A stretch of DNA of 33,575 nucleotides, taken from IMG/VR virus record IMGVR_UViG_637000261_000005. One strand, written 5' to 3'. The DNA is from a virus (taxonomy: Duplodnaviria > Heunggongvirae > Uroviricota > Caudoviricetes). Positions within the stretch are counted from its first letter, which is position 1, and each line of letters begins with the position of its first letter. The notes under the pieces were generated by a model that was not told the origin of the DNA, ran no database searches, and was given only the letters and a program-made list of their open reading frames with translations. Below, one piece after another: positions 2,041-33,575 of this stretch. The position numbers and the translations under genes are program-made.

Positions 2041-2050
2041 GTCAAAGATA

Positions 2051-8810: not shown

Positions 8811-8923
8811 TCACCCTGGTGTGCTTTGAGCACATCGAAGATCTGGTGGCGGATATTGCCGCCATTTTTAACTGGTCGCCCGCCGAAATCTTCATGATGA
8901 CGCCCGGCGAAGTGGTTAGCTGA
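8436..8923 (+). CDS. gpE+E' extended chaperone made by programmed -1 frameshift at A_AAT_TTT (8753-8759)
   Basis: Heptamer fits X_XXY_YYZ in the E frame; the -1 frame is open from there (YERARLWREERAGDG...) to a TGA at 8921-8923, 2 nt before the T ORF; position matches the conserved E/E' (G/GT-type) frameshift of myophage tail operons. Confidence 0.5.
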
Positions 8924-8924
8924 C

Positions 8925-11768: not shown

Positions 11769-11774
11769 GGAGTC

Positions 11775-12278: not shown

Positions 12279-12308
12279 AAAACCGCTAATGGTCAGATTA
12301 GCGGTTTT
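12279..12308. terminator. Bidirectional palindromic terminator shared by convergent U and invertase genes
   Basis: Perfect 12-bp inverted repeat AAAACCGCTAAT/ATTAGCGGTTTT with 6-bp spacer; overlaps the invertase stop codon (12298-12300). Confidence 0.5.
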
Positions 12309-16920: not shown

Positions 16921-16922
16921 GC

Positions 16923-18342: not shown

Positions 18343-18345
18343 GAT

Positions 18346-18696
18346 TTACTCCCTCAGCGTGATGGTTAATTCAACATTCTGCATGGTCTGCATGACAGTG
18401 CCCGACAGCGTCACCCCGGCGCGGCCTCCTGCCTTCCAGACAACGTCGATAGCGTCCAGGGCAATGCGGGGTTCCCATCGTGTCAGCGCAATCACGGCAG
18501 CACTCATGCATTGCAGACGCGTGGTGTTATTCATGGGTTCGTCAATCAAATCAGGCACAAGGCTGCCATATTCCCGTCGCATAACCCGGCTTGCCAGCGG
18601 GGTGGTCAGGATGTCCCTGACTGACTGTTTCAGGTGCTCCATATCGTTCAGGTTTCCCGTTCCGTCCGGGTTCATTCCTGTGTAGCGGGTTGTCAC
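18346..18696 (-). CDS. W: Baseplate assembly protein W (gp25-like)
   Basis: 116-aa ORF, synteny V-W-J. Confidence 0.8.
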   Translation of the reverse strand: MTTRYTGMNPDGTGNLNDMEHLKQSVRDILTTPLASRVMRREYGSLVPDLIDEPMNNTTRLQCMSAAVIALTRWEPRIALDAIDVVWKAGGRAGVTLSGTVMQTMQNVELTITLRE

Positions 18697-19274
18697 TGCG
18701 GGCCTCCTGTCGAATCGCTGCCACCTTTAACGCCACCGTGTTTATGCGTATGCACTGTGATGCCGTTTGAGGTGAAATTGCCGCCGCTGTGCGTGATATT
18801 GCCGCTCATCTTTCCCCCTTTTGTGACGTCAAGCGTCGCCGTTCTCAGAAGGTCTGTGCATTCCACGACGGGCGTATCCAGTGTCACGCTGACGGATGCC
18901 TGCAGGGTGGCTGTTTTCATGCCGCTGGCGCTCAGTGCGCCTGCGTCCGCGTCGTAGCGGAACACCGCGCCATCCGGCGCGCTGACCACGATTTCTTTCA
19001 GGCTTTTGCCGGGGGCCGGAATGGCATCACTCCACAGGCTGCCAATTATCATGGCGGTTTCCGGGTTGCCGCCAATGCAGGCAATTACCACCTGTTCGCC
19101 TGGTGATGGCGGCAGCCACACATTGAAGGCTCCCGCGCGAGAGGTGTTCCAGCGCAGCCAACCTGTTTCCAGTTCGCCGCTGCGAACGCGCACGCGCCAG
19201 GACTTCTCATCAACTTCAGAGATGATCCCGGTGCGGATGATATTGCTCAGTAGCCGCATGAGTTCTGCGCTCAC
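18693..19274 (-). CDS. V: Baseplate spike/assembly protein V (P2 gpV-like)
   Basis: 193-aa ORF with Gly-rich C-terminal tail, preceding W. Confidence 0.8.
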   Translation of the reverse strand: MSAELMRLLSNIIRTGIISEVDEKSWRVRVRSGELETGWLRWNTSRAGAFNVWLPPSPGEQVVIACIGGNPETAMIIGSLWSDAIPAPGKSLKEIVVSAPDGAVFRYDADAGALSASGMKTATLQASVSVTLDTPVVECTDLLRTATLDVTKGGKMSGNITHSGGNFTSNGITVHTHKHGGVKGGSDSTGGPQ

Positions 19275-19915
19275 CGTACAGCCTCCGCAATCCGGCCCAG
19301 CACCGTGTTATAAATCAGGCGCTCATCTGCCTGGCTGATACCCAGCAGCTCACGTACCGGGTAATCGGTGAAAATGCCCGGCGCAACCTGATCGCGCTCA
19401 CCGAACTGATGAACGCGTGCAATACGTGCGGCCACGCCGCTGTAACCCACCGTCACACCGGAAGCATCTGCACGGGCTTTCAGGTAGCGGGCGGTGCGCA
19501 GTTTTACGAACATGGGGACGCGCTTTGTGCTGTCCTGGTTGATGCGCCGGGTGCGTATTTCCAGAAAGCGGTCGATGTCATCCCGGTAAAACGTGCGGAT
19601 GCTGTTTTTATCCTCATCCCACCCGGTGATGGTTCGCCCGTATTTCCCCGTGTCGTGATGCCAGTTTTTCAGCGTGCGTGCTTCGTTATTCCAGATAAAG
19701 CGAATGCGCTCCTGTATCCGGGTTACGTGGCGTCTGCGTGGTGTCCATGCGGTCCCGTCCGGCGCTTTCTGTGGCCGGATACGTGCCTGCTGGGCGCGGC
19801 GTAAATCCTGTGCCAGCTTTCTGGCGATGTTATTGATGGCCTGCTGATTCAGGCTGTCGCGGATGGCCTCAAAGGTTTCATCCACGCGAGTGAATGCCTT
19901 ATCCATCGCTTTCAC
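19271..19915 (-). CDS. S: Tail completion / virion morphogenesis protein (gpS-like; longer than the ~150 aa I recall for P2 S)
   Basis: 214-aa ORF between R and V. Confidence 0.65.
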   Translation of the reverse strand: MKAMDKAFTRVDETFEAIRDSLNQQAINNIARKLAQDLRRAQQARIRPQKAPDGTAWTPRRRHVTRIQERIRFIWNNEARTLKNWHHDTGKYGRTITGWDEDKNSIRTFYRDDIDRFLEIRTRRINQDSTKRVPMFVKLRTARYLKARADASGVTVGYSGVAARIARVHQFGERDQVAPGIFTDYPVRELLGISQADERLIYNTVLGRIAEAVR

Positions 19916-20366
19916 CCCACGTCACATCCTGGAATACATGCGACCAGTCGCCTTCGGAAGATGGCAGGCGGGGTTTTGGCTCCAGCAGGTGTTCTGCCTG
20001 CGGTGTGCCCTGACTGCTGCGCGTGATGCGAACGCGTTCCCGCAGGGGGAGCGTAAACAGGAGATCGGCGCTGTCATCGTCATTGATAACGGCGGAAAAT
20101 TTGATGTCCTGATTACGCTCAGGGTTGAGCAACAACTGTGGCTGATTTTCGGATAACCACGCCAGCAGCGGCAGCGTGAGGTCGTCCAGCTCCCCGGCGT
20201 AATCCATGACAAACATCACCATCTGATAGCGGTAAACAAACGATGGGGTTTCTCCGGTCGTTTCAATGTTGCCGCTCTCCACGAAAATGGTGAATTTTTC
20301 CGGGTTAGCCTGACACCATCGGCATGAACGGGTCATGGCTTCACGCAGGGAATCAGTTTTCAGCAT
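19899..20366 (-). CDS. R: Tail completion protein R (P2 gpR-like)
   Basis: 155-aa ORF after the spanin genes. Confidence 0.75.
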   Translation of the reverse strand: MLKTDSLREAMTRSCRWCQANPEKFTIFVESGNIETTGETPSFVYRYQMVMFVMDYAGELDDLTLPLLAWLSENQPQLLLNPERNQDIKFSAVINDDDSADLLFTLPLRERVRITRSSQGTPQAEHLLEPKPRLPSSEGDWSHVFQDVTWGESDG

Positions 20367-20643
20367 GGTTGTTATCCTCGTTGTTCAGTCGTTGCAGCCT
20401 GCGCTGTTCCAGTAATTCAATGGCCCGTTTATCCGCGTTACAGGTTTCCAGTGCATCCAGAAGGCGGTCGCCCCATATACCGAGATTTCCCCATGTGGGA
20501 GTGTCAGGGAAGGGGGGAGGCGTTACCGGTATGGTCAGCGTCTGCGGTATAAGCCGGACTGACGGCGCTGGCAGTGGCGCGTTCTGCGTGCCTGCGCAGC
20601 CTGTCAGTAAAACGAGCGTCAGGCAAAGCGTGGGCGCATTCAT
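20353..20643 (-). CDS. lysC: o-spanin lipoprotein (LysC/Rz1-like), overlapping the 3' end of the i-spanin gene
   Basis: MNAPTLCLTLVLLTGCAG... signal peptide with LTGC lipobox, Pro-rich mature part; embedded arrangement. Confidence 0.7.
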   Translation of the reverse strand: MNAPTLCLTLVLLTGCAGTQNAPLPAPSVRLIPQTLTIPVTPPPFPDTPTWGNLGIWGDRLLDALETCNADKRAIELLEQRRLQRLNNEDNNHAEN

Positions 20644-20911
20644 CTTTTGCAATATCGTTGCGTAGCTGTTCACGTCTTACCTCTCCGTCCTGATTGCGTT
20701 GCTGATTTTCCACGCGGAGTTGCGCCAGCACCTGCTGCATATCCTGTACCCCGGCGCTGATGATATTCAGGGTGTCGGCGGTACTTTTCAGGGTGCTGGC
20801 CTGCGCTTCGTTTCTGGCGTTCTCCCGGCCCAGCGACCACGACAGACGCATGGATGTTCCCCATCCGGCAGTCAGAAGGAAAGCGACGCCAAGCGTGGGC
20901 CAGAGCTTCAT
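20504..20911 (-). CDS. lysB: i-spanin (LysB/Rz-like)
   Basis: ATG at 20909-20911 overlapping the endolysin stop (ATGA); N-terminal TM segment then coiled-coil-like region. Confidence 0.7.
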   Translation of the reverse strand: MKLWPTLGVAFLLTAGWGTSMRLSWSLGRENARNEAQASTLKSTADTLNIISAGVQDMQQVLAQLRVENQQRNQDGEVRREQLRNDIAKDECAHALPDARFTDRLRRHAERATASAVSPAYTADADHTGNASPLP

Positions 20912-21300
20912 GCCGGATAGGCTCCGTGTGGTAACTGAAAATGCGGTCCGTCTTTCAGGGTCTTCCAGTCGCCGCCCCATTCCACCGGAATATTCAGTTC
21001 CCGGCTGGCCTGTCTGAATGCTGCTGCGATTTTTTCGTACAGCGGCCATTCCCATGACATCTGGCTGCCGATATAAGCCACAACATCCACGGCATGCCCC
21101 GTAAGGTGGCGGCTGTTCATGGTCTGGCTCTTACCCGTGGCCACCAGTTGCTTCTGGCGGTAACGGCTGCGCAACCCTTCGGTGATACCAAAATCCACTT
21201 CCGAGATTTCCAGTGCCCGTCGGGTCACTTTCACCAGATCAGGATTTACACCCTGCAAATTCTTTTCGCTCCGGCTGCTGAATTTAAATGTGTTGCTCAT
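20908..21300 (-). CDS. Endolysin, zinc peptidase M15 family
   Basis: SRHLTGHAVDV and DGPHFQL motifs (His/Asp zinc ligands) typical of M15 peptidoglycan peptidases; position after the holin. Confidence 0.75.
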   Translation of the reverse strand: MSNTFKFSSRSEKNLQGVNPDLVKVTRRALEISEVDFGITEGLRSRYRQKQLVATGKSQTMNSRHLTGHAVDVVAYIGSQMSWEWPLYEKIAAAFRQASRELNIPVEWGGDWKTLKDGPHFQLPHGAYPA

Positions 21301-21620
21301 TCGTCCTTCTCCTTCACCCTGCGATTAAAGGCCGCAATAACCTTGTCGCGTGCTTTCTCTGCACCCATAAAACCGATTGATGCGCCGATAAACGTCACGG
21401 CATCTTCAGGAAACCCGAAGAAGCGCAACGACCCGGCCACGGCCATGGCAAGAACGCCGCACGCCAGCGATCCCGTTACGGTCTGAACCAGTGTTCGTCC
21501 GTCATAAAGGCTCATCAGCGCGGAAATGCTGACCGCCGCGCCTACTGCATACACCGTTGGCAGGTGGTCAAAGAGCCACGCAATAACCTGCTCTGTGATC
21601 CCTGTTTGAATGGTGCTCAC
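21297..21620 (-). CDS. Holin; GTG start at 21618-21620
   Basis: GGGGGGAG RBS then GTG; ~107 aa with hydrophobic helices and charged C-terminus (NRRVKEKDE); between X and endolysin. The ORF-track frame extends upstream to 21839. Confidence 0.7.
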   Translation of the reverse strand: MSTIQTGITEQVIAWLFDHLPTVYAVGAAVSISALMSLYDGRTLVQTVTGSLACGVLAMAVAGSLRFFGFPEDAVTFIGASIGFMGAEKARDKVIAAFNRRVKEKDE

Positions 21621-21622
21621 TG

Positions 21623-21823
21623 CTACTCCCCCCACAACTGAATCATTTCTCGTTTCTTCTTCTCCGGCTCCGGCATCTCCACTTCCTGCCCGGCGTCCAG
21701 AAATACCTGCTGACAGAGTCCGGGGTTGGCATCCAGCACCTTTTCGGTGACGCCCTGCGTCGTGCCGTAGTACCGGAAACAGAGCGAATCCACGGTGTCG
21801 CCTTCCAGTGCCTTCACTTTCAT
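21623..21823 (-). CDS. X: Tail protein X (P2 gpX-like, LysM-like)
   Basis: MKVKALEGDTVDSLCFRYYG...ANPGL... resembles P2 gpX; ATG at 21821-21823. Confidence 0.75.
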   Translation of the reverse strand: MKVKALEGDTVDSLCFRYYGTTQGVTEKVLDANPGLCQQVFLDAGQEVEMPEPEKKKREMIQLWGE

Positions 21824-22326
21824 CAGCACAACTCCGCAAAGATTCGCGGGCGGCACAGAATGTCAGAGATGGCCCAGCTCACATCACGCCACAAATCCGA
21901 TGTCTGTATATCCAGAGCGTCTGCCCGGCGGTCGCCCTTGTCCGTAGTGTCTGCATCACGATAACGCTCCAGAATCAGGGCGCGCGTGGCGGTATAAACA
22001 GCATTGCGCCAGTGCCAGAGATTGACGCTTTCTCCGTTAATTACGGGTGCCGGAACATCGGCCAGCGTCTGATGGCCAGCTGCCTGCTGTTCCTGCTGCC
22101 ATGCTTCCAGCTCGCGGGTAACGTGTGCCACAGCCCCGGTGGCAGTATGCAGCAGGCGGGAGGTGGTCACGCGCCCCGGCAGTCGTACCGCCAGACGCAG
22201 CTCGCGCAGCACAATATCCGGCCAGAATGCACCCGCTGAAATGCGGGTATCGCCATCATCGGTATCGGTGATGTCGTCCTCTGCGGGTCCGGGTTCAGTT
22301 CTGGCAACTATAGTCATGGGGTTCAC
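21823..22326 (-). CDS. L: Head completion protein (P2 gpL-like)
   Basis: 167-aa ORF between M and X; start GTG 22326 or ATG 22317. Confidence 0.75.
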   Translation of the reverse strand: MNPMTIVARTEPGPAEDDITDTDDGDTRISAGAFWPDIVLRELRLAVRLPGRVTTSRLLHTATGAVAHVTRELEAWQQEQQAAGHQTLADVPAPVINGESVNLWHWRNAVYTATRALILERYRDADTTDKGDRRADALDIQTSDLWRDVSWAISDILCRPRIFAELC

Positions 22327-22349
22327 TCCTGAAAAAAAATCGGCGGTGG

Positions 22350-22395
22350 GTGCGCGGTGTAAACGGTCACGGAGTCAAACTGGAACACCGCGCAC
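22350..22395. other. Perfect 11-bp stem hairpin in the L-M intergenic region
   Basis: GTGCGCGGTGT (22350-22360) and ACACCGCGCAC (22385-22395) with 24-nt loop; a smaller palindrome CTGACGGGTCAG follows. Confidence 0.3.
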
Positions 22396-22482
22396 GCCGC
22401 CCGCTGACGGGTCAGTCGTTAACCGCGCTTCGCCTTCTGCGTCGCGGTGGTTTTTCGTGTTGCAGGCTTCCGCGTTGTCTTT

Positions 22483-23229
22483 TTACTTTTGCTGCTTTTT
22501 GCTGCTTTCGTCCTGCGCCTGCTGTGCGCTGGCGTCTTCTGGTTCGGCTGCGGAATCGGCTTTTTTCAGGGCGCGGGAAAGGGTTGCAATCTCGCGTTTC
22601 ACACCTGCGTTCGGGTTCAGGTGCATTGCTTCGCGCAGCAGCTTCAGTGACAGGGCCATGCTGTCCGCATCACTCAGGCCACGGCGGGCAAAGGCGCACG
22701 CTTTGCATAATTTGGCGCGCACTTCGTCCGGCATGTCCTGGTCGGTGACAATCTCCCGGAGGGTGTCCAGTGGTTCGATAAAGGCGGACAAATCCGCGTC
22801 GGCATCCGTCCCGGCCTGCGTCAGTACCGGATTACAGATTTCTTCGGTCAGTACCGTGGCAGCAGTACGGCCAAAGTTATCCGGCATGATGAGGTTGTGA
22901 CGGACTACATACGCGCCGATACGCAGCGCAAGCGGAAGATCGCCACAGTCAATCGCCCACACCATCAGCGTGGCAATCACTTCATCCTGCTGCCCGCCGT
23001 CAGCCTCCAGCGTTCCCTCAATCCAGCCGGAAAAATCCGGCAACAACTCTTTTTTGATGGCGGCTTTCGCGCTTCTGGCCTGTACGCCCTTAAGCCGGGC
23101 CTGTGCCAGACGCAGACGATACAGCACCTCTTCATGCGCGGTACGCGCGGCGTGGTCCACGCCTTCATTCGCCCGGCCTGCGCGCTGTGCCATCACGTTC
23201 TGCCAGTGTTGTTGTGCAGGAGTAATCAT
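22483..23229 (-). CDS. M: Terminase small/endonuclease subunit (P2 gpM-like)
   Basis: 248-aa ORF with acidic Lys-rich C-terminus, between N and L. Confidence 0.8.
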   Translation of the reverse strand: MITPAQQHWQNVMAQRAGRANEGVDHAARTAHEEVLYRLRLAQARLKGVQARSAKAAIKKELLPDFSGWIEGTLEADGGQQDEVIATLMVWAIDCGDLPLALRIGAYVVRHNLIMPDNFGRTAATVLTEEICNPVLTQAGTDADADLSAFIEPLDTLREIVTDQDMPDEVRAKLCKACAFARRGLSDADSMALSLKLLREAMHLNPNAGVKREIATLSRALKKADSAAEPEDASAQQAQDESSKKQQK

Positions 23230-23274
23230 TTTTGCTCTCCGTTACAGGCGGGCATGATGCCCGCCGTGAGTTGA

Positions 23275-24326
23275 TTAGCTGTCGGCGAACTTCAGGCCAG
23301 TAACCATCGCGCACTTGCCATAGTCTTCAACGACATAAGCGTCATTGATGGACTGGTAGGTGGCGATGCGGTTGTATTCCGGCTCGTCTTTCATCAGGCG
23401 ACGCATTGAACCTTTCTGCCAGTAAATCGACAGGTTGTTGAACGAGGTGATCAGCATCGTTGCATCCGGGAAGAACGGCGCAAGGAACACGCCCAGCCCG
23501 CCAATGGTGCGCGATGACAGGATGAGCTGCCCGGCGAGTAATTCCGCATTGGGATTCTGGCCGCTGATGCTGTTCAGCACGGGCAGACGCAGCGAGTTAA
23601 ACAGGTTGCGCCCCATAATCACCACGAGGTCGTCAGCTTCCTTGTGCCATTCATCCAGCAGGGATGAACGCGCGTCCTGTACCAGTGCATCAGCGTTCGC
23701 ATACTTACCCGCGTGCGCCACGGTGTTGTCCATGTTGCGGGAGGTCAGCGTCACGTCATTCATAACGCGTTCGCTGGCGTCGGTTCTGATGTGCTCCAGC
23801 CAGCCCACGTTAACGTCCTGAAGCAGCTTGTTGGTGCTGAAGTTGGACTCATCCGCGTGAGACGTGCCGTTGAAACCGATCATGATGCGGTCAAGCGCCA
23901 CCTGTCGGGCAATCTGTGCGCTGATGCGGGACTGAAAATCAGGGTGTGCCGACCAGGCATCAAGCTGCGGATACGAAATAAACGTGTCGTAGTTCACCTG
24001 TTCACACTGATATTTGCGGTTTTTCAGATCAACCACGTTATTCGGGTTACGGCGTTTTGTGCCGTCATAACTGGTATTCGTGCGCGCAATCGGTCCTGTG
24101 GTATCCAGGAGGATTTTTTCGCCTTTCTGGTCGGTCACGCCGATCACGTTATTTTTTTCGTAAATTCGGTACTTTCCTTTGAGGTGTTTTCAAAACGCTG
24201 CTGCACCGCGGGTTCCACGGTAAATCGCGACACCAGTGCAGATACCGGGATATTATTAAGCGACACCTGCTGCGCCATATAGCAACCCAGCTTGTTGCGG
24301 GTAATATCTGACATCACCAGATTCAT
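23275..24326 (-). pseudogene. N: Major capsid protein (P2 gpN-like) with a frameshift near 24148-24158
   Basis: N-terminal 60 codons (...RFTVEPAVQQRFENTSKESTEFTKKIT-stop) and the 290-aa body (NNVIGVTDQKGEKILL...) are in different frames, joined at an A/T homopolymer (T7 at 24152-24158); one added base restores ...EFTKKINVIGVT.... Confidence 0.8.
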
Positions 24327-24349
24327 AAAAAATTTGCTCCTTTGTCTAA

Positions 24350-25186
24350 TCAGAAGTCGGCCAGCTGGTCGGAGGCTGCGCCCGTTGCGGTGAAGCGGTT
24401 CTGCGGATCGCCGTCCTGCGTGCGCAGTTTTTCCTTCAGTGCTGCCAGCTCTGTGGTCAGTGACGTAATTTTCTGGCGGTCCTGCTGATGGCGGGTTTCC
24501 AGCACATTAAAACGGTCGATAATGTCGGCCTGTGACGTTGCGACGCCTTCCACCGCTTCCTGAATACGGGAAAAACTGGCGTCATCCGCTTTGCGGCCAC
24601 GGCCAATAATCCCCATTACGCGGTTAAACCACTGGGTGCCTTCTTCCTGGCGTTGTTCTGCCATTTCGATGATTTCAGACTCGATGGCTTCGGAGATAAG
24701 CGGCGCTTCACCCTGGATACTGTTAAACGTCATCACCGCCTGACGTTGCTGTGCCGTGAATTTCAGGCGCTCAGTGCCCAGGCTTGCCGGGGTGTCGGTC
24801 ATCGCCAGCCCGACCAGATAGGCGCGCCCGTTAACGGAGAACTGCGGGTGCAGTTCGATACTGGAATAGATTTTCTTGCCGTCCGCAACAAGCTGCTTCA
24901 TGCGCTCGGTCGGTTCGATTTCTGCATACAGCGCAGTACGTCCGGCCAGCGGACCTTCCGTAATCTCTTCCGTACTCAGTGCGGTGACATCGCCCATTGC
25001 GGAAAATTCGCTTGACGGGCATGGCGAGAGATAGTGCTCAACGTTCACGCGGGCAGCGTAAACATCCGGGTTGAAGTTCTCGGCGGCTTCACGCAGATGC
25101 ACCGGACTGATTTCACGGCCATCAACAGTTGATCCGGAGACAGCCACGCGAAACTTTTTGCGGGATGTCTTTTTTTCATTAGCCAT
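24350..25186 (-). CDS. O: Capsid scaffold protein (P2 gpO-like); ATG 25184-25186 preferred, alternative upstream start at 25219
   Basis: MANEKKTSRKKFRVAVSGSTVDGREI... resembles gpO N-terminus; precedes N. Confidence 0.8.
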   Translation of the reverse strand: MANEKKTSRKKFRVAVSGSTVDGREISPVHLREAAENFNPDVYAARVNVEHYLSPCPSSEFSAMGDVTALSTEEITEGPLAGRTALYAEIEPTERMKQLVADGKKIYSSIELHPQFSVNGRAYLVGLAMTDTPASLGTERLKFTAQQRQAVMTFNSIQGEAPLISEAIESEIIEMAEQRQEEGTQWFNRVMGIIGRGRKADDASFSRIQEAVEGVATSQADIIDRFNVLETRHQQDRQKITSLTTELAALKEKLRTQDGDPQNRFTATGAASDQLADF

Positions 25187-25254
25187 AGTTTTTGCCCCTC
25201 TGACTGGTTCTTCAGTCATGATGGCAAAGCGTAACAGGCTGATACAAAGGGCTT

Positions 25255-25278
25255 TTGTTGTAAGAAAACGGCCAGAAC
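25255..25278 (+). promoter_or_regulatory. Candidate activator-dependent late promoter element upstream of P, in the divergent O/P region
   Basis: TTGTTGT-N12-AGAAC, same motif and flanking CTTTTGTTGT as upstream of FI (6585-6608). Confidence 0.35.
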
Positions 25279-25340
25279 AGAGGGTTAAGGAGAACAGTTT
25301 CGCGCGCGGGTAATCTTCCTGTAATTACTCAGGGGGAGCA

Positions 25341-27092
25341 ATGATTCAGGACGCTTTTGTGCGCCAGCGTGCGCGGCAACTTTACTGGCAGGGTTATCCG
25401 CCCGCAGAAATATCACGTCTGATGGGAATAAACCCGAACACGATTTATGCGTGGAAAAAACGTGACCAGTGGGATGAAACGCCACCCGGGCAGCGTGTCA
25501 CGCAGTCCATCGATGCGCGCCTCATCCAGCTTACTGAAAAACAGAATAAAACAGGCGGTGACTTTAAGGAAATAGACCTGCTGACCCGGCAGCTTAAAAA
25601 GCTGCATGATGGCCAGCCGGATGTGATGGCCGCAGGAAAGAAAGGCCGGGCGAAAAAACTCAAAAATCATTTCACGCCGGAACAGATTGCCGCACTGCGG
25701 GAAAAAATCATCAGCAGGCTGGAGTGGCATCAGCGGGGCTGGTTTGACTCCCTGACCCTTTGCAGGGAAGCCGGGATACGTAACAGGATGATCCTGAAAT
25801 CCCGACAGATTGGGGCGACCTGGTATTTTGCACAGGAAGCACTGCTGATGGCGCTGCGTGACGATGTGGCGCAACCTTACCAGCGTAACCAGATTTTTTT
25901 GTCTGCGTCGCGTCGTCAGGCGTTCCAGTTTAAAAGCATTATTCAGAAGGCCGCGGCTGAAGTTGATGTGGAGCTGAAAGGGGGCGATAAAATCATCCTC
26001 TCCAACGGCGCAGAGCTGCATTTTCTCGGCACTTCTGCTGCGTCGGCACAGTCCTATACGGGCAATTTTTATTTTGATGAATTTTTCTGGGTCAGTCGCT
26101 TTGCTGAACTGCGCAAGGTGGCTGGCGCTATGGCAACCCTCAGCGGACTGCGGCGCACCTACTTCTCCACGCCATCCACCGAAACGCACGAGGCATACGC
26201 CTACTGGAACGGCGACCGCTGGAACGAGAAAAAGGCCTCGCATAAACGCCAGCGTTTTTCTGTGGACTGGAAAACGCTGCATAACGGGCTTATCTGCCCT
26301 GACCGGACGTGGCGGCAAATTGTCACGCTGGAAGATGTGGTTAATCACGGCTGGAAACACACCGATATCGACGAAATTCGTGATGAAAACACCGAAGACG
26401 AGTTCCTCAATCTCTATATGTGTGAGTTTGTCCGCGAAGGGGAATCGGCATTTAACCTGAATATCCTGATTGGCTGCGGCGTTGACGGATACGACGACTG
26501 GAAAGACTGGAAACCTTTTGCTCCCCGCCCGATGGGGAATCGTCCGGTATGGATTGGGTATGACGCAAACGGCAGCAGTGGCAACGGCGACAGCGGCGCT
26601 GTGTCCGTGGTGGTTCCTCCGTCTGTTCCTGGTGGCCGTTTTCGAACGGTGGAGACGCGACGCGTTCAGGGGCTGGAGTTTGAAGAACAGGCCAGAGTCA
26701 TTGAAGAGTTCACGTGTCGCTACAACGTGGAACACATCGGCATTGATGTGACGGGCGGGAACGGGGAGGCTGTTTATCAGATAGTGAAACGGTTTTTCCC
26801 TGCCGCTATTCCGTACACCTTCACGCTGTCATCAAAACGGTCGCTGGTACTGAAAATGCTGCAAATAATGCGTGCCGGGCGGTGGGAATACGATCGCGCC
26901 GAACGCGAGCTGGTCGCGGCCTTTAACGCCGTGCGTAAGGTGAAAACACCGGGCGGCTTTATCACTTACGAAACGGACCGAGCGAGGGGGATCAGCCACG
27001 GCGACCTTGCGTGGGCAACCATGCTTGCTGTCATTAACGAACCGATTGGCGGCGAAGGAGAAAACGAGCGTTTCACGGTTATGGAGTTCTGA
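25341..27092 (+). CDS. P: Terminase large (ATPase) subunit (P2 gpP-like)
   Basis: 583-aa ORF with AGGGGGAG RBS; conserved terminase blocks. Confidence 0.9.
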   Translation: MIQDAFVRQRARQLYWQGYPPAEISRLMGINPNTIYAWKKRDQWDETPPGQRVTQSIDARLIQLTEKQNKTGGDFKEIDLLTRQLKKLHDGQPDVMAAGKKGRAKKLKNHFTPEQIAALREKIISRLEWHQRGWFDSLTLCREAGIRNRMILKSRQIGATWYFAQEALLMALRDDVAQPYQRNQIFLSASRRQAFQFKSIIQKAAAEVDVELKGGDKIILSNGAELHFLGTSAASAQSYTGNFYFDEFFWVSRFAELRKVAGAMATLSGLRRTYFSTPSTETHEAYAYWNGDRWNEKKASHKRQRFSVDWKTLHNGLICPDRTWRQIVTLEDVVNHGWKHTDIDEIRDENTEDEFLNLYMCEFVREGESAFNLNILIGCGVDGYDDWKDWKPFAPRPMGNRPVWIGYDANGSSGNGDSGAVSVVVPPSVPGGRFRTVETRRVQGLEFEEQARVIEEFTCRYNVEHIGIDVTGGNGEAVYQIVKRFFPAAIPYTFTLSSKRSLVLKMLQIMRAGRWEYDRAERELVAAFNAVRKVKTPGGFITYETDRARGISHGDLAWATMLAVINEPIGGEGENERFTVMEF

Positions 27093-28138
27093 TGAGCAGA
27101 AAAAATAAAAAAGTGCGCATGAGTTCACGCATTGATCTCGCTGATGCGCTCAGGAAAGAATCATCGCTCAGTGCATTCACATTTGATGGTCCTTATCGCC
27201 TGACCGGGCATGACCTGCTGGACAATATGTACTGTGCTGATAACGGGCGGTGGTATGAAACCCCGGTGGACTGGTACGGTCTGGCAAGAGCTGCCCGGCA
27301 AACGTCCTGGCATCAGTCTGCGCTTTATTTTAAGCGCAATGTATTGCTCGGTTGCTACATCCCGCACCCGCTGCTTTCCCGGCAGGATTTCTCGGCGCTG
27401 GCGCTGGACTGGTTTGTGTTCGGTAACGCATTCCTTGAGCTTCGAAGCAATATGCTCGGCGAACCGCTTAAATTACGGCACGCCCTGGCGAAATACATGC
27501 GACGCGGAAGCGATCTTGAATCATGGAGGTATGTGCAGGATGGCAAGGATGCGTTTCAGTTTCGCCCAGGCAAAGTGTGTCACCTGATGAATCCTGACAT
27601 TAACCAGGAAATCTACGGCATGCCGGAATATCTCGGCGCATTACTCTCGGCCAGCCTGTCTCATTCGGCGGACATGTTCAGAAAACTGTATTACGACAAC
27701 GGATCCCACGCCGGGTGCATCATCTACATCGGTGCCGCGCAGGTAAACCGCGAAAGCATGGACTCCCTGAAAGAAACGCTACAGGGTGCGCGTGGTGGTG
27801 GTGCGTTTAAAAACGTGCTCATTCATGCGCCCAACGGGGGCAAAGAGGGGGTGCAAATTTTGCCGTTCCAGCAGATCACCGCAAAGGATGAGTTCATGAA
27901 TGTTAAGGCGGCATCCCGTGATGATGTGCTGGCTGCGCACCGCGTTCCGCCGCAACTGATGGGGGCGATGCCGGGTGAAAAAAGTGCGTTTGGTGATGTG
28001 GAGAAGGCCGCGCGGGTTTACGCAATTAACGAGCTGATGCCCGTCATGGAGGCCATGAAGCACATCAATGACTGGCTTGGCGAAGAGGTGATCCGCTTTA
28101 ACCCTTACGCACTGTTAGACATCCAGCCCACATCCTGA
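27092..28138 (+). CDS. Q: Portal protein (P2 gpQ-like)
   Basis: 348-aa ORF overlapping the P stop (ATGA-type); position at the cos-proximal end. Confidence 0.85.
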   Translation: MSRKNKKVRMSSRIDLADALRKESSLSAFTFDGPYRLTGHDLLDNMYCADNGRWYETPVDWYGLARAARQTSWHQSALYFKRNVLLGCYIPHPLLSRQDFSALALDWFVFGNAFLELRSNMLGEPLKLRHALAKYMRRGSDLESWRYVQDGKDAFQFRPGKVCHLMNPDINQEIYGMPEYLGALLSASLSHSADMFRKLYYDNGSHAGCIIYIGAAQVNRESMDSLKETLQGARGGGAFKNVLIHAPNGGKEGVQILPFQQITAKDEFMNVKAASRDDVLAAHRVPPQLMGAMPGEKSAFGDVEKAARVYAINELMPVMEAMKHINDWLGEEVIRFNPYALLDIQPTS

Positions 28139-28467
28139 CGCGCTTCGCTTGTCTGCTGCTTCGCCGGGGCATAAAAAATTTATGCCCCGACTCTCCAGCT
28201 CCTGTATCAGTCAGATAATTTCACGACGCCTTCCAGTTTATCGCCACCATCGACGGTCAGACTCTTACGCAATCCCACCGCGTTGACTGCATGTTCTCGC
28301 CGCCTCAGTGCGATTTTGACGGCCTTACCTTTCACCCCATCAAATCAGAATCCCTCACGTATTTTTCACGCTCAGCGTGAGAAATACGGCCATTCTGTCG
28401 TGTCGCTGCGACATCGTTAAGGGAACGCTATTTACCCCCTGAAACGCGGGCTGTTCCCCCGTCACCT

Positions 28468-28492
28468 GCGCGCAGAAAAAGCGCGTTTTTTT
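28468..28492 (+). terminator. Intrinsic terminator in the cos-proximal intergenic region
   Basis: GCGCGC-AGAAAAA-GCGCG hairpin followed by seven T. Confidence 0.45.
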
Positions 28493-28562
28493 GTGCACGC
28501 ACGGATCCTTGACGGATCCAGCCGCCACGCGGGCTGGAAGGGCAAAAATTCGTTCAAAAAAA

Positions 28563-28589
28563 TTGTGCAAATTTGTGCACTATTGTGCA
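28563..28589. repeat. Three TTGTGCA direct repeats at exactly 10-bp spacing
   Basis: AATTGTGCAAATTTGTGCACTATTGTGCAG; followed by a 9-bp-stem palindrome CAGGGCGAT...ATCGCCCTG (28591-28616). Confidence 0.4.
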
Positions 28590-28628
28590 GCAGGGCGATG
28601 TGCGATTATCGCCCTGGTTTGAGGGGGA

Positions 28629-29219
28629 TCAGGTGTTATTTTTATCTGTCGTCAGTGGGCTAAACCATCCACAATTTACATCGCATGACTGATGCGTTCT
28701 GTCCTCGTGTTTCTCCTGCCACAATGCTTTTCCGCCAGCCTTTATGATGGCTCTTTCAACATCCCGCTCGTATCGCAAGGGCTGAAATACGTCATTAATG
28801 AAATATTCGCTTATGTCCGGAAGCGATACTGCAAAATTATTTGTTTGTTGCGCCGTCCTGCTATGCAGCAAAGCGGCATGCTTTAATGCGTCCTGTGCTT
28901 TCTGGAATTTAAGTGCATAGTCAGTGGCGATTTTTTCCAGTTCAGCGATTCGGTTGTCTTTGGTTTCCAGCCAATCAAGTAGCGCCAATACTTCAGGATC
29001 CCCGACATCCAACACTGTTACGCGTGATTTTTCATAATGTTCGTCAGCAAGAGTTCGGCCAATTTTGAAATCTCCATCATCACCATAACCGGAGCAGGCA
29101 TAAACAACCTGTGCTCCAGATATTCGCTGAATTGACATTTCCTCGCCGCAAATAGGGCATTTCGGTACTGGCACAGGTGAATAACGTTCACGTAATGCCT
29201 GATAGTTGATTTCGCTCAT
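28629..29219 (-). CDS. Hypothetical 196-aa protein with N-terminal zinc-ribbon-like motif
   Basis: AAGGAG RBS 7 nt before the ATG; CPICGEEMS...YACSGYG cysteine pairs, central coiled-coil-like region; no family recognised. Confidence 0.65.
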   Translation of the reverse strand: MSEINYQALRERYSPVPVPKCPICGEEMSIQRISGAQVVYACSGYGDDGDFKIGRTLADEHYEKSRVTVLDVGDPEVLALLDWLETKDNRIAELEKIATDYALKFQKAQDALKHAALLHSRTAQQTNNFAVSLPDISEYFINDVFQPLRYERDVERAIIKAGGKALWQEKHEDRTHQSCDVNCGWFSPLTTDKNNT

Positions 29220-29282
29220 TAAGTCGTTCTCCTTGTTTATGTTCTGAGGTGGAGAGCAGGGCGAACTCGCCCTGATGTTGTG

Positions 29283-29594
29283 TTATTCAGGAAATAACGC
29301 CCGGATATTTCCGGCCATCTGACTGGTTATCTGTGCGGTTGATACTGGCTGTGATGCGGGGCGTTCTGTCCTGGTTTGTGTCACTGATAACGCTTCATCA
29401 CCAGCCCATGCAGCCAGTCGATAAGCCTCTGCCGGATTCATTTTCAGAAGTGCCAGCCCGGCCAGAAAAGCCACGCGTTGGCCGCTTTTGCGGGCTTCTG
29501 GTGTAAGGCTGTCCAGCCAGGCGCATGCTTCTCCTTCGTTCTTGACGGCGGTGGGCTTCAGATAGAAACTTATCCGTCTGGTTGGAGTCGTCAT
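29283..29594 (-). CDS. ParR/StbB-like partition adaptor
   Basis: MTTPTRRISFYLKP...SGQRVAFLAGLALL... resembles R1 ParR N-terminus; ATG at 29592-29594 with AAGGAG RBS, just downstream of the ParM-like stop. Confidence 0.55.
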   Translation of the reverse strand: MTTPTRRISFYLKPTAVKNEGEACAWLDSLTPEARKSGQRVAFLAGLALLKMNPAEAYRLAAWAGDEALSVTQTRTERPASQPVSTAQITSQMAGNIRALFPE

Positions 29595-29598
29595 TGGT

Positions 29599-30204
29599 TT
29601 ACTCCTTGTCCATTGCGTACAGCCCATTAACCAGAGCAAACTGTGGCACCCCGTCCGCGATGAAAGTCGCATTAACTCCGCAGGCTTCGCGGATAGCGGG
29701 TGCCACAATCTCCGCCCCTCCACCGACAACCATCACCCGCCCGTAACCCGAAAAAACCGCCAGCGCGCGGATCACGCGTTGTTTCAGTGTTTCTTCCTTT
29801 TCACGAATTACCGCCATCAGGCTGGCGTAATGCGCGTCATTGTGGATGTGCTGGCGCAGCCAGGCTTCATCATGGCGATGTTCGATAATGGTATTGGCGA
29901 TGTGGTGACTGGTGCGCATACCGTTAGTGGCCATCACCGACAGTACGGCATCGGCCATCAGAGAAACGCCCACGTGTGGATCGCAAAACACCTGGCTGAT
30001 ACCTGCCAGTTGCCCCTGAACCTTTGCCACATCCAGCGTGGTTCCGCCCAAATCCACAATCAGCAGGGATTCAAACGGACTCATGTCAGCCAGTGCCTTA
30101 AAGCCAGCCGGAATGGATTCAGGCATAACCTGTACGTTACGGATAGTGAATGCTTCGCCGTTCTGGTACTCCACCGGGCGCATGACGTTCGCTTTTTTGC
30201 GGTT
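29599..30204 (-). pseudogene. ParM/StbA-like actin-type ATPase, 5' end removed by IS911 (C-terminal ~200 aa remain)
   Basis: ...VMPESIPAGF...LLIVDLGGTTLDVA...VMVVGGGAEIV...LVNGLYAMDKE matches the C-terminal half of R1 ParM; the frame runs into the IS911 terminus at 30205. Confidence 0.75.
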
Positions 30205-30212
30205 TGAAGTGG

Positions 30213-31381
<1,169 letters not shown>

Positions 31382-31453
31382 TGGAGCACCTGTGTTGTTC
31401 TGAGGTGAGCATATCACCTCTGTTCAGGTGGCCAAATTCAGTGTGCCACTTCA

Positions 31454-31719
31454 AACCGAAGAACACGGCGGTGCGGAGTCCGGAGAGTAACGGAATAGCA
31501 GAGAGCTTCGTGAAAACGATAAAGCGTGACTACATCAGTATCATGCCCAAACCAGACGGGTTAACGGCAGCAAAGAACCTTGCAGAGGCGTTCGAGCATT
31601 ATAACGAATGGCATCCGCATAGTGCGCTGGGTTATCACTCGCCACGGGAATATCTGCGGCAGCGGGCTTGTAATGGGTTAAGTGATAACAGATGTCTGGA
31701 AATATAGGGGCAAATCCAC
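31454..31719 (+). mobile_element. IS2 3'-terminal fragment (about 266 bp), abutting IS911
   Basis: Near-identical to 1455-1719 of the complete IS2, ending in GGGGCAAATCCA at 31719. Confidence 0.85.
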
Positions 31720-31917
31720 TGCGGCACAGATCAGCTCGGAAAGTTCGTTAAGTGCATCCAGATCATCAGCGTAAAAAGCCACGTCATACAGACTTCGGAT
31801 TGCTCTGGTCAATGAGTCACGGGCCGCACGTTCAGCATGAGCGCCTGATGCACTTAAGCGAAAATAAAAACGCTCAAGTGCTTTGTTAATGAGAGTTTTA
31901 TATTCTTTGCCCATCAC
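31720..31917 (-). pseudogene. Small early-region ORF, 3' end replaced by the IS2 fragment
   Basis: MMGKEYKTLINKALERFYFRLSASGAHAERAARDSLTRAIRSLYDVAFYADDLDALNELSELICAAV then IS2-derived codons; family not recognised; second gene of the early operon by position. Confidence 0.45.
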
Positions 31918-31925
31918 AACGCCCT

Positions 31926-32126
31926 TTAATCTGCTTTCTGTATTTCAGCTTCTGAATCCATACAAATAATTTCGATATAGGGTTCATCGCCATTAACCTG
32001 GCGTGCCTTTTCAGCTTCGCTAATGATTTCTTGTACGGTCTGGTACGGAAGTTCCACAAGCAGTCGCGTGCCGTTCAGATAAACGTAAGTGGCTTCGTCG
32101 GCTCCGTTTTTACCCGCCGGAGTCAC
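31926..32126 (-). CDS. Small early-region ORF open to the IS629 boundary (possibly 5'-truncated); cox-position gene by synteny
   Basis: 66 codons from a GTG at the IS629 junction; no internal ATG near the start; family not recognised. Confidence 0.4.
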   Translation of the reverse strand: MTPAGKNGADEATYVYLNGTRLLVELPYQTVQEIISEAEKARQVNGDEPYIEIICMDSEAEIQKAD

Positions 32127-32168
32127 TGAACCGCCCCGGGTTTCCTGGAGAGTGTTTTATCTGTGAAC

Positions 32169-33059
32169 TCAGGCTGCCAGATCATCGTTTCCGATGGAAG
32201 CATAATAAGCTTTTTCTGCTTCTGCCGGAGGGATGTGGCCCAGCCTTTCCAGCAATCGTCGATTATTATACCAGTCCACCCACGTGAGTGTGGCCAGTTC
32301 CACTTCTGCACGGTTTTTCCAGCTCTTACGGTGTATTACCTCCGCTTTGTAAAGACCATTGATGCTCTCCGCCATCGCGTTGTCATACGAGTCGCCTGTA
32401 CTTCCTGTTGATGCCAGTAATCCGGCTTCCTTAAGCCGCTGTGTGTAGGCCAGCGATACATACTGAGAACCTTTATCACTGTGATGGACCGTGCCGGACG
32501 GTCGACGGGCCCATAACGCCTGCTCCAGTGCATCCAGCACGAATGTCGTCTCCATGGACGATGAGACCCGCCACCCCACGATGTATCCGGCAAACACATC
32601 AATGATGAACGCCACATAGACGAAGCCCTGCCATGTGCTGACGTAAGTAAAATCAGCCACCCACAGCTGGTCAGGTCGTTCTGCCACGAACTGACGGTTT
32701 ACGCGGTCGCCTGCGGCAACGGCTTTCCGGCTGATGGTCGTACGGACCTTTTTACCCCGGAGAACACCGGCAAGTCCCATAACCGCCATGAGACGTGCCA
32801 CAGTGCATCTGGCCACTCTGATGCCTTCCCGTAACAACTGACGCCAGACTTTACGCACACCGTATACCTGATGATTCCCATCGTATACGCGCAGTATCTC
32901 TTTCTTCAGCCAGTCATCGCGCTGCGCACGGGCACTGCGTTTATCAGGATGATGTCGCTGTTGCTGACAGTGGTAATACGTTGACGGGGCAATATGTAGT
33001 TCACTGCATACCGGTCCGACCCCGTACAGCTTACGCAGCTTATCCAGCAGTGGCATCAC
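32169..33059 (-). CDS. IS629-like transposase OrfB
   Basis: 296-aa ORF with DDE domain. Confidence 0.85.
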
Positions 33060-33382
33060 TTTTTCCAGAGGCGGTCGAACTCCGCCTTCGCAAAATAAGC
33101 GGAAGCCTGGCGAAGGATATCGTTACTGCGGCGCAGTTCACGATTTTCACGTTCCAGCTCTTTCAGACGCTGACGTTCAGCGGTGGTGAGCCCGCCATCA
33201 CCGCCTCCGGTATCCCGCTCATGCTGGCGTACCCAGACACGCAGAGTCTCCGGTGTACAGCCAATCTTTGGGGCAATGGAACAAATTGCCGCCCACTGTG
33301 AGTCATATTCGCCCTGACTTTCCAGAACCATACGAATCGCCCTCTGACGGACTTCGGGGGAAAAACGAGTATTTTTAGTCAT
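33056..33382 (-). CDS. IS629-like transposase OrfA
   Basis: 108-aa ORF with helix-turn-helix region and leucine-zipper-like C-terminus. Confidence 0.85.
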
Positions 33383-33436
33383 CCTGTTTACCTCTTTCTC
33401 AGGGAGTTTAGTCTCCAGGATTCCCGGGGCGGTTCA

Positions 33437-33575
33437 CATGATGAACGGCGGCAATATTCTGACGCTCCAGAAAATTCTGGGGCACGCAAAGATTCAGACA
33501 ACGATGATTTATGCCCATCTTGCGCCGGATTACCTGCAGGATGCGGTGAGGTTTAATCCACTAGGAGGTGCTTAA
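33437..33575 (+). pseudogene. int: Integrase C-terminal remnant (last 45 codons of a P2-type tyrosine recombinase)
   Basis: MMNGGNILTLQKILGHAKIQTTMIYAHLAPDYLQDAVRFNPLGGA-stop closely matches the P2 Int C-terminus including the catalytic Tyr region; begins at the IS629 junction and ends at the window edge. Confidence 0.8.

Follow-up and report, generated by a model that had tools for sequence, protein, structure and literature searches.

A decayed ParMRC-type remnant in a P88-like Shigella prophage and the gpA-linked parMR block of its intact relatives

Positions 28,629 to 30,204 of the window, i.e., the whole stretch of 33,575 nucleotides that was analyzed, are the decayed leftover of the parMRC module of a P88-like prophage. 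In intact relatives, comparison of sequences and loci indicates that parMR is a normal, conserved block tied to the gpA replication module in at least six genera, and its ancestral role was probably the segregation or positioning of the transient circular phage genome. The window itself is a defective P88-like (Xuanwuvirus, P2-family) prophage of the Shigella boydii Sb227 type, placed in this group by collinear identity, by its structural genes and by the gpA-parMR-cos-Q-P layout, with the early region mostly deleted in the window. Its phage matches are Xuanwuvirus and P88. Window positions 19129-30204 are 98.2% identical in nucleotide sequence to positions 1-11066 of an intact prophage locus, L001 (blastn synteny), and large blocks are shared at 93–97% identity with a complete genome (L004). 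The gene order of the intact relatives is int-C-cox-...-gpA-parM-parR-(variable cargo)-cos-Q-P. The preliminary description had placed three minus-strand ORFs between gpA and cos/portal of an integrating P2-family prophage; the ORFs were recovered at the same positions and this location was borne out. The features of the region and of its surroundings are as follows.

28139..28628, no strand: cos-proximal intergenic block, from portal gene Q to the cargo gene, with terminator-like hairpins for both converging units
28629..29219, minus strand: Ead/Ea22-like gene (196 aa, PF13935), in the variable cargo slot
29283..29594, minus strand: parR, intact, encoding a 103-aa putative centromere-binding adaptor (PF10784)
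29599..30204, minus strand: parM', codons 119-319 and stop of a 319-aa actin-like segregation ATPase, first 118 residues absent
30205..31453, minus strand: IS911, 1249 bp, with orfA (31079-31417) and orfB (30213-31052), transcribed codirectionally with parM'
31454..31718, plus strand: 3' remnant of a second IS3-family element, with an rve_3 C-terminal fragment (E 2.6e-18)
31719..32127, minus strand: surviving early-region piece, i.e., the DUF4754 gene without its 3' end and a 66-aa ORF, equivalent to L001 16301-16709

The ParM/ParR pair proposed previously is genuine and of the R1/pB171 type. In the ORF at 29599-30219(-), the ParM C-terminal domain (PF21523) was matched over its entire profile (positions 1-159 of 159, E 2.3e-69), together with just the final 39 positions of the ParM N-terminal domain (PF06406, 119-157 of 158, E 7.9e-15); hence, the gene is 5'-truncated. 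The 206-aa product of this ORF is exactly GenBank ABB66034.1 of S. boydii Sb227. The motifs VMPESIPAGF, DLGGTTLDVA and VVGGGAEIV, from which the C-terminal half of ParM had been recognized, were all found in the translation, and the best alignment was to ParM and not to another actin-fold family; however, residues 119-319 represent 201 of 319 amino acids (63%) and not half of the protein. Starting at residue 119, the window copy has lost the DDGSTN phosphate-1 loop, whereas intact ParM keeps DDGSTN, DLGGTTLD and GGGAE, so that the intact nucleotide-binding motifs of a type II system are present in the relatives and not in the window. Intact ParM aligned with R1 ParM (1mwk) over residues 2-316 (E 1e-92, about 50% identity over the full length). 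Over 606 nt, parM' differs from parM of L001 by two nonsynonymous and no synonymous changes. PHROGs 691 and 2515, both “partition protein”, were assigned to the ParM/ParR pair (2515 being ParR).

The small adaptor gene expected directly downstream of parM in a type II system is present, its ORF beginning 4 nt past the parM stop. The Pfam family Plasmid_stab_B (ParR/StbB, PF10784) was matched in the ORF at 29283-29729(-) with an E-value of 7.8e-23, and the real ParR is the 103-aa ORF starting at ATG (29283-29594), not the 148-aa ORF starting at TTG. The window protein is 100% identical to WP_000211289 of L001. A ParR profile matched pB171 StbB/ParR (2jd3) with an E-value of 1e-14, a single-sequence phmmer search against the PDB giving no match. 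On the strength of the Pfam and 2jd3 profile matches, the protein is assigned to the ParR family and, by family, would be a ribbon-helix-helix adaptor, consistent with the ParR-like gene of the preliminary description. Residues 1-66 are conserved and are followed by a hypervariable linker and a conserved C-terminal tail, NIRALFPE, which aligns with plasmid ParR tails, that of R1 among them, in a [KR]xN[AI]xxLF pattern. Prophage ParR alleles are 52–97% identical, whereas ParM stays at or above 91%. The AF2 model of the ParR monomer, built from 33 prophage alleles, reached a mean pLDDT of 58 without an N-terminal strand, and Foldseek returned no PDB match below E 3; such an uninformative model is expected, since ParR is an obligate dimer with a disordered linker. 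Compared with R1 ParMRC, the P88-like module has a ParM about 50% identical with all nucleotide-binding motifs, the same order of parM then parR, and a PF10784 adaptor. It differs in its carrier, an integrating P2-family phage and not a plasmid, and in a shorter ParR (103 aa) without the middle helix region.

The loss of the upstream part of the module is associated with IS911. The end of the remnant at 30204 proved exact, the IS911 inverted repeat TGAAGTGGTCAAC... beginning at 30205. Copies annotated “IS3-like element IS911 family transposase” share 99.8% identity with the element at 30205-31453, which has the length (1249 bp, about 1250 expected), the terminal inverted repeats, the orfA/orfB pair and the Pfam domains (HTH_Tnp_1 and rve) of IS911. 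On the left, IS911 interrupts parM at codon 119; on the right, it adjoins the second IS3-family remnant, presumably IS2-like to judge by the IS2 end sequence. This remnant, itself cut by IS911, occupies the position of the missing 3' part of the DUF4754 gene (PF15946, E 1.8e-41), and homology to L001 picks up again at 31719. Between the surviving early-region piece and parM codon 119, 5,234 bp are missing by comparison with L001 (blastn synteny), a stretch that contains gpA, five small early genes, the candidate parC and ParM residues 1-118. The palindromes found upstream of intact parM have no copy left anywhere in the window. Since the flanking triplets GTT and AAC differ, IS911 is without a target-site duplication. 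The truncation by IS911 and the resulting inactivity had been anticipated; a simple insertion, however, does not fit the 5.2-kb loss and the missing duplication. After this rearrangement the parMR module of the window is dead, because gpA, the upstream region and both palindromes are gone together with the first 118 residues of ParM, among them the phosphate-1 loop, while ParR and the Ead/Ea22-like gene persist as intact ORFs. The window is in this respect one more case of a Shigella prophage grounded by IS elements. The intact form of the module is found in P88 (gp17/gp18), from which the window differs by the absence of ParM 1-118, the palindromes and gpA; in P88 and in the Xuanwuvirus phages P884B11, 520873, phiSM, PhiR44_2 and Chuche, ParM is 95.6–100% identical and occupies the same position after gpA.

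Intact parM-parR directly after gpA was found in 1307 of 5426 complete E. coli genomes (24%), and 1453 of the 1455 parMR places in such genomes are chromosomal. Hence, intact homologs are not confined to plasmids, which would have spoken against a prophage module, but lie overwhelmingly in chromosomal prophages. A P88-type gpA is carried by 1355 complete E. coli genomes (coverage of at least 80%), and a “replication endonuclease” adjoins parMR in 39 of the 40 matches listed across the ranking. The order gpA-parM-parR-cargo-portal also occurs in P2-like prophages of Salmonella, Hafnia, Plesiomonas, Serratia and Enterobacter, with a ParM identity of 54–62% in the last four. All 14 loci with at least 54% ParM identity have gpA upstream of ParM, and P2 genes occur at 0 of 24 full-length loci with 52% identity or less. 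The ParM clade found in phage context nests among plasmid ParMs and was monophyletic in 144 of 200 neighbor-joining bootstraps (72%, moderate). In E. albertii, ParM and gpA are 99% and 97% identical while the portal is just 30% identical; parMR therefore travels with the replication module. ParM is under purifying selection, as dN/dS ranged from 0.00 to 0.17 across nine prophage copies and was 0.065 for a Serratia pair, i.e., about 0.07 overall. The presence of parMR in P88-like prophages is an already annotated, known feature: the identical intact arrangement is listed in Table S5 of Rousset et al. (2022, PMC9122126), and the PGAP labels of the intact genes are ParM and “plasmid partitioning/stability family protein”.

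Upstream of parM, the intact loci contain two 38-nt repeats 73 bp apart, each with the palindrome ACGGGA-N8-TCCCGT. These palindromes are the sole perfect matches in an entire 34-kb phage genome. They are near-invariant across ParR alleles, the proximal TCCCG arm being TCCTG in two of six sequences. The same two-site architecture, with a distance of 72–73 bp, recurs in Plesiomonas and Hafnia, the distal palindrome of Hafnia falling within a different gene, while in the relatives from Serratia and Enterobacter one long inverted repeat stands upstream instead. The two palindromes are therefore presented as a candidate centromere made of putative ParR sites. A search for a centromere-like iteron array upstream of intact homologs had been suggested; paired sites were found there, but no iteron array, which distinguishes the P88-like loci from a plasmid-type relative (L015) with short direct iteron arrays. 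The paired palindromes, two sites and not an array, might be an operator only. Their reading as RNA hairpins or terminators was rejected, the stems being of 3–4 bp in Plesiomonas and Hafnia and the gene strand having no following T-run. gpA and parM have the same orientation and are separated by a 76-bp spacer in which no terminator-like site was found on the gene strand, suggesting that parMR is co-expressed with gpA as part of the early replication operon. A promoter scan of the gene strand upstream of parM found no sigma-70-like site.

Two precedents led us to infer a segregation role for the ancestral module. Carraro et al. (2015, PMC4489591) showed for the srpMRC system of SXT/R391 ICEs that it stabilizes both a test plasmid and the transient excised circle, and that the sites bound by its adaptor are repeats upstream of the M gene. 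srpMRC resembles the P88-like module as an actin-type partition system on a normally integrated element, but SrpM is distant from R1 ParM, SrpR has no ParR homology, and its carrier is an ICE that replicates from oriT with expression tied to SetCD and int. In Corynebacterium glutamicum, prophage CGP3 encodes AlpAC, an actin-like filament former with an adaptor that recognizes DNA ahead of the operon encoding it; AlpAC is induced early and acts on circular phage DNA, its role being efficient replication and not inheritance (Donovan et al., 2015, PMC4446434). Here again an integrated prophage encodes an actin-like protein and a DNA-binding adaptor, although the actin-like family is a separate one and the host is actinobacterial. 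Judging from family membership, ParR dimers would bind the two GGG-N10-CCC-type palindromes, which precede the parM start codon by about 55 and 128 bp, and the conserved C-terminal tail of ParR would capture the ends of ATP-driven ParM filaments, whose growth would push copies of the circular phage genome apart. Because P88-like phages live integrated, the module would probably be active only in the extrachromosomal circle, be it between infection and integration or, following excision, during the early replication driven by gpA. The copies of the circle would then be distributed or positioned, instead of being lost or clumped. In the literature, ParM was found mentioned for P2-like phages (Peduoviridae, P88, Xuanwuvirus) at annotation level only, and no functional experiment on any P88-like parMR was found. 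The module is not essential to the P2 family, as P2 itself and other members run through the same life cycle without parMR.

Alternatively, parMR could organize the lytic cycle in the manner of AlpAC, positioning or spreading the replicating circles for replication and packaging and not for inheritance, which we regard as rather unlikely. P2 replicates as a gpA-nicked rolling circle, and monomeric circles are its packaging substrate. The tight linkage of the module to gpA, which it follows in the same orientation behind the terminator-free spacer of 76 bp, would suit such a role. However, ParMRC is a bipolar pushing machine fit for low-copy DNA, and both P2 and 186 replicate well without parMR. 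The sole difference between this reading and segregation of the transient circle is which extrachromosomal stage matters.

Facultative phage-plasmids, in which P88-like phages would persist as low-copy plasmids served by parMRC, are improbable. One complete circular record of 34,461 bp, pZ1323PEC0009-2, holds a whole P88-like genome closed at att, and the ParM clade sits among plasmid ParMs. Besides, the sole other phage with this type of ParM in a collection of 50,697 records is D6, whose StbA carries the GenBank note “similar to phage P88 StbA”; D6 StbA/StbB nevertheless includes a ParM only 47.5% identical, and D6 is a true plasmid prophage in which integration is absent. Against persistence as a plasmid, 1453 of 1455 E. 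coli parMR places are chromosomal, the reference loci carry an intact integrase and an intact att, and the annotated replication gene is the rolling-circle gpA only, with no plasmid-type initiator. Among the listed matches in 72,556 plasmid records there was one phage-sized circle, the other strong matches being very large replicons, and long-read assembly can capture a genome in its excised or induced state as a lone circular contig. A query with the attP junction gave no single-place match in complete E. coli genomes, a weak test as it is blind to records that start at the junction. Therefore, the suggestion that the ancestor persisted as a plasmid is not supported as the norm.

A captured accessory cargo with a non-partition role, such as exclusion of or incompatibility with plasmids and phages with a related centromere, or anti-phage defense, is very improbable as well. 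The gpA-gpQ interval of P2 is the old/tin accessory and defense hotspot, among whose contents StbA and Plasmid_stab_B were counted (Rousset et al., 2022, PMC9122126), and the diversity of ParR alleles (52–97%) is striking in comparison with ParM (at least 91%). However, parMR is constant while its downstream neighbors vary, and its synteny is kept across genera. The variation of ParR is restricted to the linker, with the DNA-binding N-terminus, the tail and the palindromes fixed, unlike what specificity switching would produce, and PADLOC gave no matches for ParM, ParR or the Ead/Ea22-like protein. With all the partition parts conserved and PADLOC negative, this earlier suggestion found no positive support. 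The assignment of the whole region to an old/tin-type slot must likewise be divided. The map interval is the same, and the Ead/Ea22-like gene behaves as hotspot cargo, since slot contents vary between close phages; parMR, in contrast, forms a constant, lineage-wide block with gpA in at least six genera, is not swappable and has no defense-family match. The occupants downstream of parR differ between P88, MS8345, 569R5, Serratia (HicAB) and Enterobacter (KAP NTPase), the cargo of P88 being two small ORFs and that of the window the Ead/Ea22-like gene. The truly variable slot starts downstream of parR, where this gene sits. Finally, a functionless plasmid par cassette acquired by chance and merely not lost yet is scarcely credible: the window copy is decaying and the ParM of phage record 503458 is frameshifted, but dN/dS is about 0.07, the gene order is kept over six genera at 54–62% ParM identity, and catalytic motifs, ParR tail and upstream palindromes are all conserved.

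An R1-type actin-like segregation machine is thus a conserved, selected part of a P2-family lineage that roughly one E. coli genome in four carries, whereas databases label parM “plasmid segregation protein” and hotspot surveys count parMR as cargo. This raises the wider question of whether a brief extrachromosomal phase makes active partition necessary for integrating phages, as it does for some ICEs, and a second one, whether two palindromes suffice as a type II centromere. Quite tentatively, a minimal, two-site ParMRC may be what P88-like phages, and relatives of theirs in at least six enterobacterial genera, rely on for a short plasmid-like phase in a life cycle that is otherwise one of integration. 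If so, inheritance of the unintegrated or excised circle would be secured, or a carrier or pseudolysogenic state enabled; the paired palindromes would represent a novel and reduced type of centromere among R1-type systems, and an actin-based step would exist in a very common E. coli prophage family (24% of complete genomes).

The 196-aa protein encoded at 28629-29219(-), previously described as a zinc-ribbon protein, belongs primarily to the Ead/Ea22-like family (PF13935, E 2.1e-32, 113 bits against a cutoff of 27, residues 2-140), a name borne by all its close relatives. In this protein a CxxC...C...H module at the N-terminus is followed by a long helix and then by a small domain at the C-terminus. 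The pattern C21-x2-C24-x17-C42-x18-H61 is conserved in the relatives sharing this N-terminal module (modular family alignment), which gives the protein its zinc-ribbon character, and Pfam zinc-ribbon matches were sub-threshold (E 0.014–0.034). The AF2 model had a mean pLDDT of 64 and no significant fold match was found by Foldseek, the nearest one being the zinc-ribbon region of E. coli topoisomerase I (probability 0.51, E 0.9). The zinc-ribbon label stays tentative because the model is of low confidence and the fold matches are non-significant.

The three genes had been described as directed toward cos, which is right by synteny, as the cargo and portal gene Q flank cos in P2-like phages. As the 19-nt cohesive end of P2 found no match with up to three mismatches, cos is placed by synteny only. 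In the adjacent block, the window sequence and a terminator scan of the equivalent L001 stretch revealed minus-strand terminator-like hairpins at 28565-28580, followed by a T-run, and at 28591-28616, as well as a plus-strand hairpin with a T-run after Q, around 28468-28496. TTGTGCA repeats phased by 10 bp beside cos were considered as an alternative centromere and rejected, being a terminator-like hairpin with a T-run and, moreover, part of the cos-side block (query 1-451), which is kept even in a record without parMR.

The ParMR genes under study form a previously annotated, lineage-typical partition module that is dead in the window copy. By DNA similarity, the window groups with P88-like phages (genus Xuanwuvirus, Peduoviridae) as well as numerous E. 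coli prophages. The intact gene order was read from the E. coli prophage L001 and from phage P88 (L002): int, C, cox and small early genes are followed by the gpA replication endonuclease, parM (319 aa), parR (103 aa) and one or more variable genes, and the opposite strand then carries the portal gene Q and the terminase gene P. The ORF listing and Pfam searches bore out the three minus-strand genes proposed at 28629-30204, which lie in the window together with several IS3-family elements:

~400-1720 (+): IS3-family element, ORFs 480-845 and 803-1708, HTH_Tnp_1 and rve
28629-29219 (-): Ead/Ea22-like gene, 196 aa, PF13935, E 2.1e-32
29283-29594 (-): parR, 103 aa, PF10784, ParR/StbB type, E 7.8e-23
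29599-30204 (-): parM' remnant, PF21523 ParM C-terminal domain, E 2.3e-69
30205-31453: IS911, 99.8% identity to annotated IS911 copies, terminal inverted repeat
32130-33390: IS3-family element, presumably IS629-like, with ALIL frameshift pseudoknot RF01497 at 32985-33101 (116 bits)

The right-hand limit proposed for the cassette, 30204, is exact, the IS911 inverted repeat starting at 30205. According to Pfam, parM' covers only the final 39 positions of the ParM N-terminal domain profile; 201 of the 319 residues survive, the ParM-derived codons starting at N119. When synteny with L001 was mapped by blastn, window 19129-30204 corresponded to L001 1-11066 (98.2% identity) and the next homology began only at window 31719 (L001 16301). 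Therefore, 5,234 bp are missing; gone are gpA with five small early genes, the stretch ahead of parM, and ParM residues 1-118. Their place is taken by IS911 together with a 3' stub of another IS3-family element, which we take to be IS2-like. Since the triplets beside IS911 differ (GTT versus AAC), the event was no simple insertion. The element at 32130-33390 adjoins the final 45 codons of a tyrosine integrase (33438-33575); the prophage, lacking cox, C and the N-terminal part of the integrase, is hence unable to excise. The window prophage is without replication, regulation and excision functions, and the cassette is inactive, as had been supposed. With the element at ~400-1720, four IS copies or remnants are present in 33.6 kb. 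The ~400-1720 element sits in the ogr/hok-side prophage end and is an insertion relative to the complete P88-like genome pZ1323PEC0009-2 (L004).

The ParM/ParR identity given in the preliminary description was confirmed. Intact ParM matched R1 ParM (PDB 1mwk) with an E value of 1e-92 across residues 2-316 and keeps the phosphate-1 (DDGSTN), phosphate-2 (DLGGTTLD) and adenosine (GGGAE) motifs, while Pfam matches to other actin-fold families were much weaker. A ParR profile of ten sequences, one of them an R1 sequence, matched pB171 StbB/ParR (2jd3) over its entire length (E 1e-14). Among 33 E. coli ParR alleles, residues 1-66 and the tail NIRALFPE are conserved around a hypervariable linker (67-92), the layout expected for a centromere-binding adaptor with a ParM-engaging tail. 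Prophage ParR alleles (P0121-P0168; L001 10145-10456, corresponding to window 29283-29594) range near-continuously from 97% to 52% identity. Their variation is limited to linker residues 67-92, and the ParM next to them stays at least 91% identical. Diversifying selection could explain this, as could a loosening of constraint on a disordered segment.

In complete E. coli genomes, parM-parR was found in 1307 of 5426, and 1453 of its 1455 places were chromosomal, which contradicts the possibility that homologs occur solely on plasmids and never in prophages. P88-type gpA at full coverage occurred in 1355 genomes, and a "replication endonuclease" was also present in 39 of the 40 entries listed across the ranking of parMR genomes. 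Beyond a tight Escherichia clade (ParM identity of at least 91%), the next relatives come from Hafnia and Plesiomonas (62%), Serratia (58%) and Enterobacter ludwigii (54%), all in P2-like prophages between gpA and the portal gene. In a context survey that took a single genome for each species and added tblastn, gpA lay upstream in 14/14 loci with ParM identity of at least 54%, and no P2 gene occurred at any of the 24 full-length loci with identity of 52% or below, those inspected being plasmid- or ICE-like in appearance. The phage-context ParMs formed one clade in 144 of 200 bootstraps. In E. albertii NBRC 107761 (L017), ParM and gpA are 99% and 97% identical to the P88 type and portal, terminase and capsid only 27-35%; hence parMR moves together with the replication module. 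L017 is a mosaic prophage, its structural module being nearer the Hafnia/Plesiomonas type. Pairwise dN/dS was 0.00-0.17 among nine prophage copies and 0.065 for a Serratia pair. Taken with distribution and synteny, parMR is therefore a conserved, selected part of the phage lineage. Its proposed status as accessory-slot cargo did not hold, since parMR is constant and the variable content lies downstream of parR. That position holds an Ead/Ea22-like gene in the window and L001, a pair of small ORFs in P88, different hypothetical genes in MS8345 and in 569R5, HicAB in Serratia and a KAP NTPase in Enterobacter.

Upstream of intact parM, two 38-nt repeats lie 73 bp apart, each with ACGGGA-N8-TCCCGT, the distal one within the gpA 3' end. 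No other perfect matches occur in a complete 34-kb phage genome. The repeats are nearly constant across ParR alleles, the proximal TCCCG arm being TCCTG in 2/6 sequences. In Plesiomonas, CGGG-N10-CCCG stands at -132, followed 72 bp downstream by a degenerate copy; in Hafnia, GGG-N10/11-CCC palindromes occur at -129 and at -56, the distal one inside a different gene; Serratia and Enterobacter have a single long inverted repeat opening with the same GGCAAAAA(C/T)GGGA motif. An iteron array of the classical kind, made of TTTATCTC iterons, was seen in a plasmid-type relative. The palindromes may be ParR sites serving as operator and/or minimal parC. Neither is present in the window.

Every part of an R1-type machine is conserved in the intact module, and its carrier is integrated nearly everywhere. 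The reading that appears best supported is that parMRC would work on a transient circular genome, either prior to integration or once excised and in early replication. No terminator-like site was found between gpA and parM, suggesting co-expression with the early operon. There are two experimental precedents: srpMRC of SXT/R391 ICEs stabilises both a test plasmid and the ICE in its excised form (PMC4489591), and AlpAC of prophage CGP3, required for efficient replication, tethers the circular DNA of the phage to actin-like filaments (PMC4446434). Among the rival readings, a stable phage-plasmid lifestyle draws on two points only, kinship with D6 and one 34.4-kb circular record. The latter, L004 (NZ_CP148288.1, 34,461 bp), is filed as an E. 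coli plasmid with its att junction closed, and represents either a rare episomal state or the assembly of a genome that had been excised or induced. Rousset et al. (2022; PMC9122126) delimit the gpA-gpQ interval as a defence hotspot. A defence or exclusion role for parMR found no positive evidence, PADLOC giving no match. The data on selection and on synteny contradict the idea of parMR as a neutral hitch-hiker.

The implied novelty of the cassette did not stand, the genes being already annotated. The exact 206-aa product of the parM' ORF is ABB66034.1, [quoted passage not shown]; PGAP uses ParM and "plasmid partitioning/stability family protein", PHROGs label both proteins "partition protein", and the D6 GenBank record remarks on similarity to "phage P88 StbA". 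Our literature search found no functional study of P88-like parMR. That integrating P2-family phages retain ParMRC is only moderately surprising because of the ICE and CGP3 precedents.

The Ead/Ea22-like family is modular in its alignment. The N-terminal module of the window protein carries a conserved C21-x2-C24-x17-C42-x18-H61, making the earlier "zinc ribbon" label plausible. In the model (mean pLDDT 64), this module is followed by a long helix and then by a C-terminal domain of small size; a fold search gave no significant match.

Elsewhere, a tail sheath/tube/tape-measure block (6686-12269, +) and baseplate, fibre and head genes (14770-25219, -) flank a serine recombinase (12298-12915, -; Resolvase and HTH_7, E 2e-50) and tail-fibre-assembly ORFs of opposed orientation, an arrangement resembling an invertible tail-fibre switch of the Gin/Cin type. 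The tail block and recombinase layout is the same in L004. A record titled Vagococcus sp. WN89Y (L018) holds a 98% identical E. coli-type P88-like prophage region on a 226-kb contig; in an assembly labelled Gram-positive, this is probably contamination or mislabelling.

Finally, a 33% GC island (~1957-5422) holds one further gene, an insertion between ogr and gpD relative to a complete P88-like genome:

2051-5170 (-): 1039-aa ORF, GenBank ABB66007.1

Its name "MFS transporter" looks spurious. The protein has about four hydrophobic N-terminal segments and a ~830-aa domain with no sequence match in Pfam, NCBIfam, PADLOC or PDB. Members of its family are ~1050 aa long and number 244 representatives at E<=1e-3, the best-scoring full-length relatives being 21-28% identical, and seven distant members yielded no Pfam domain. 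ABB66007.1 may be an uncharacterised cargo or defence gene of the prophage, and its novelty arguably exceeds that of the ParMR remnant.
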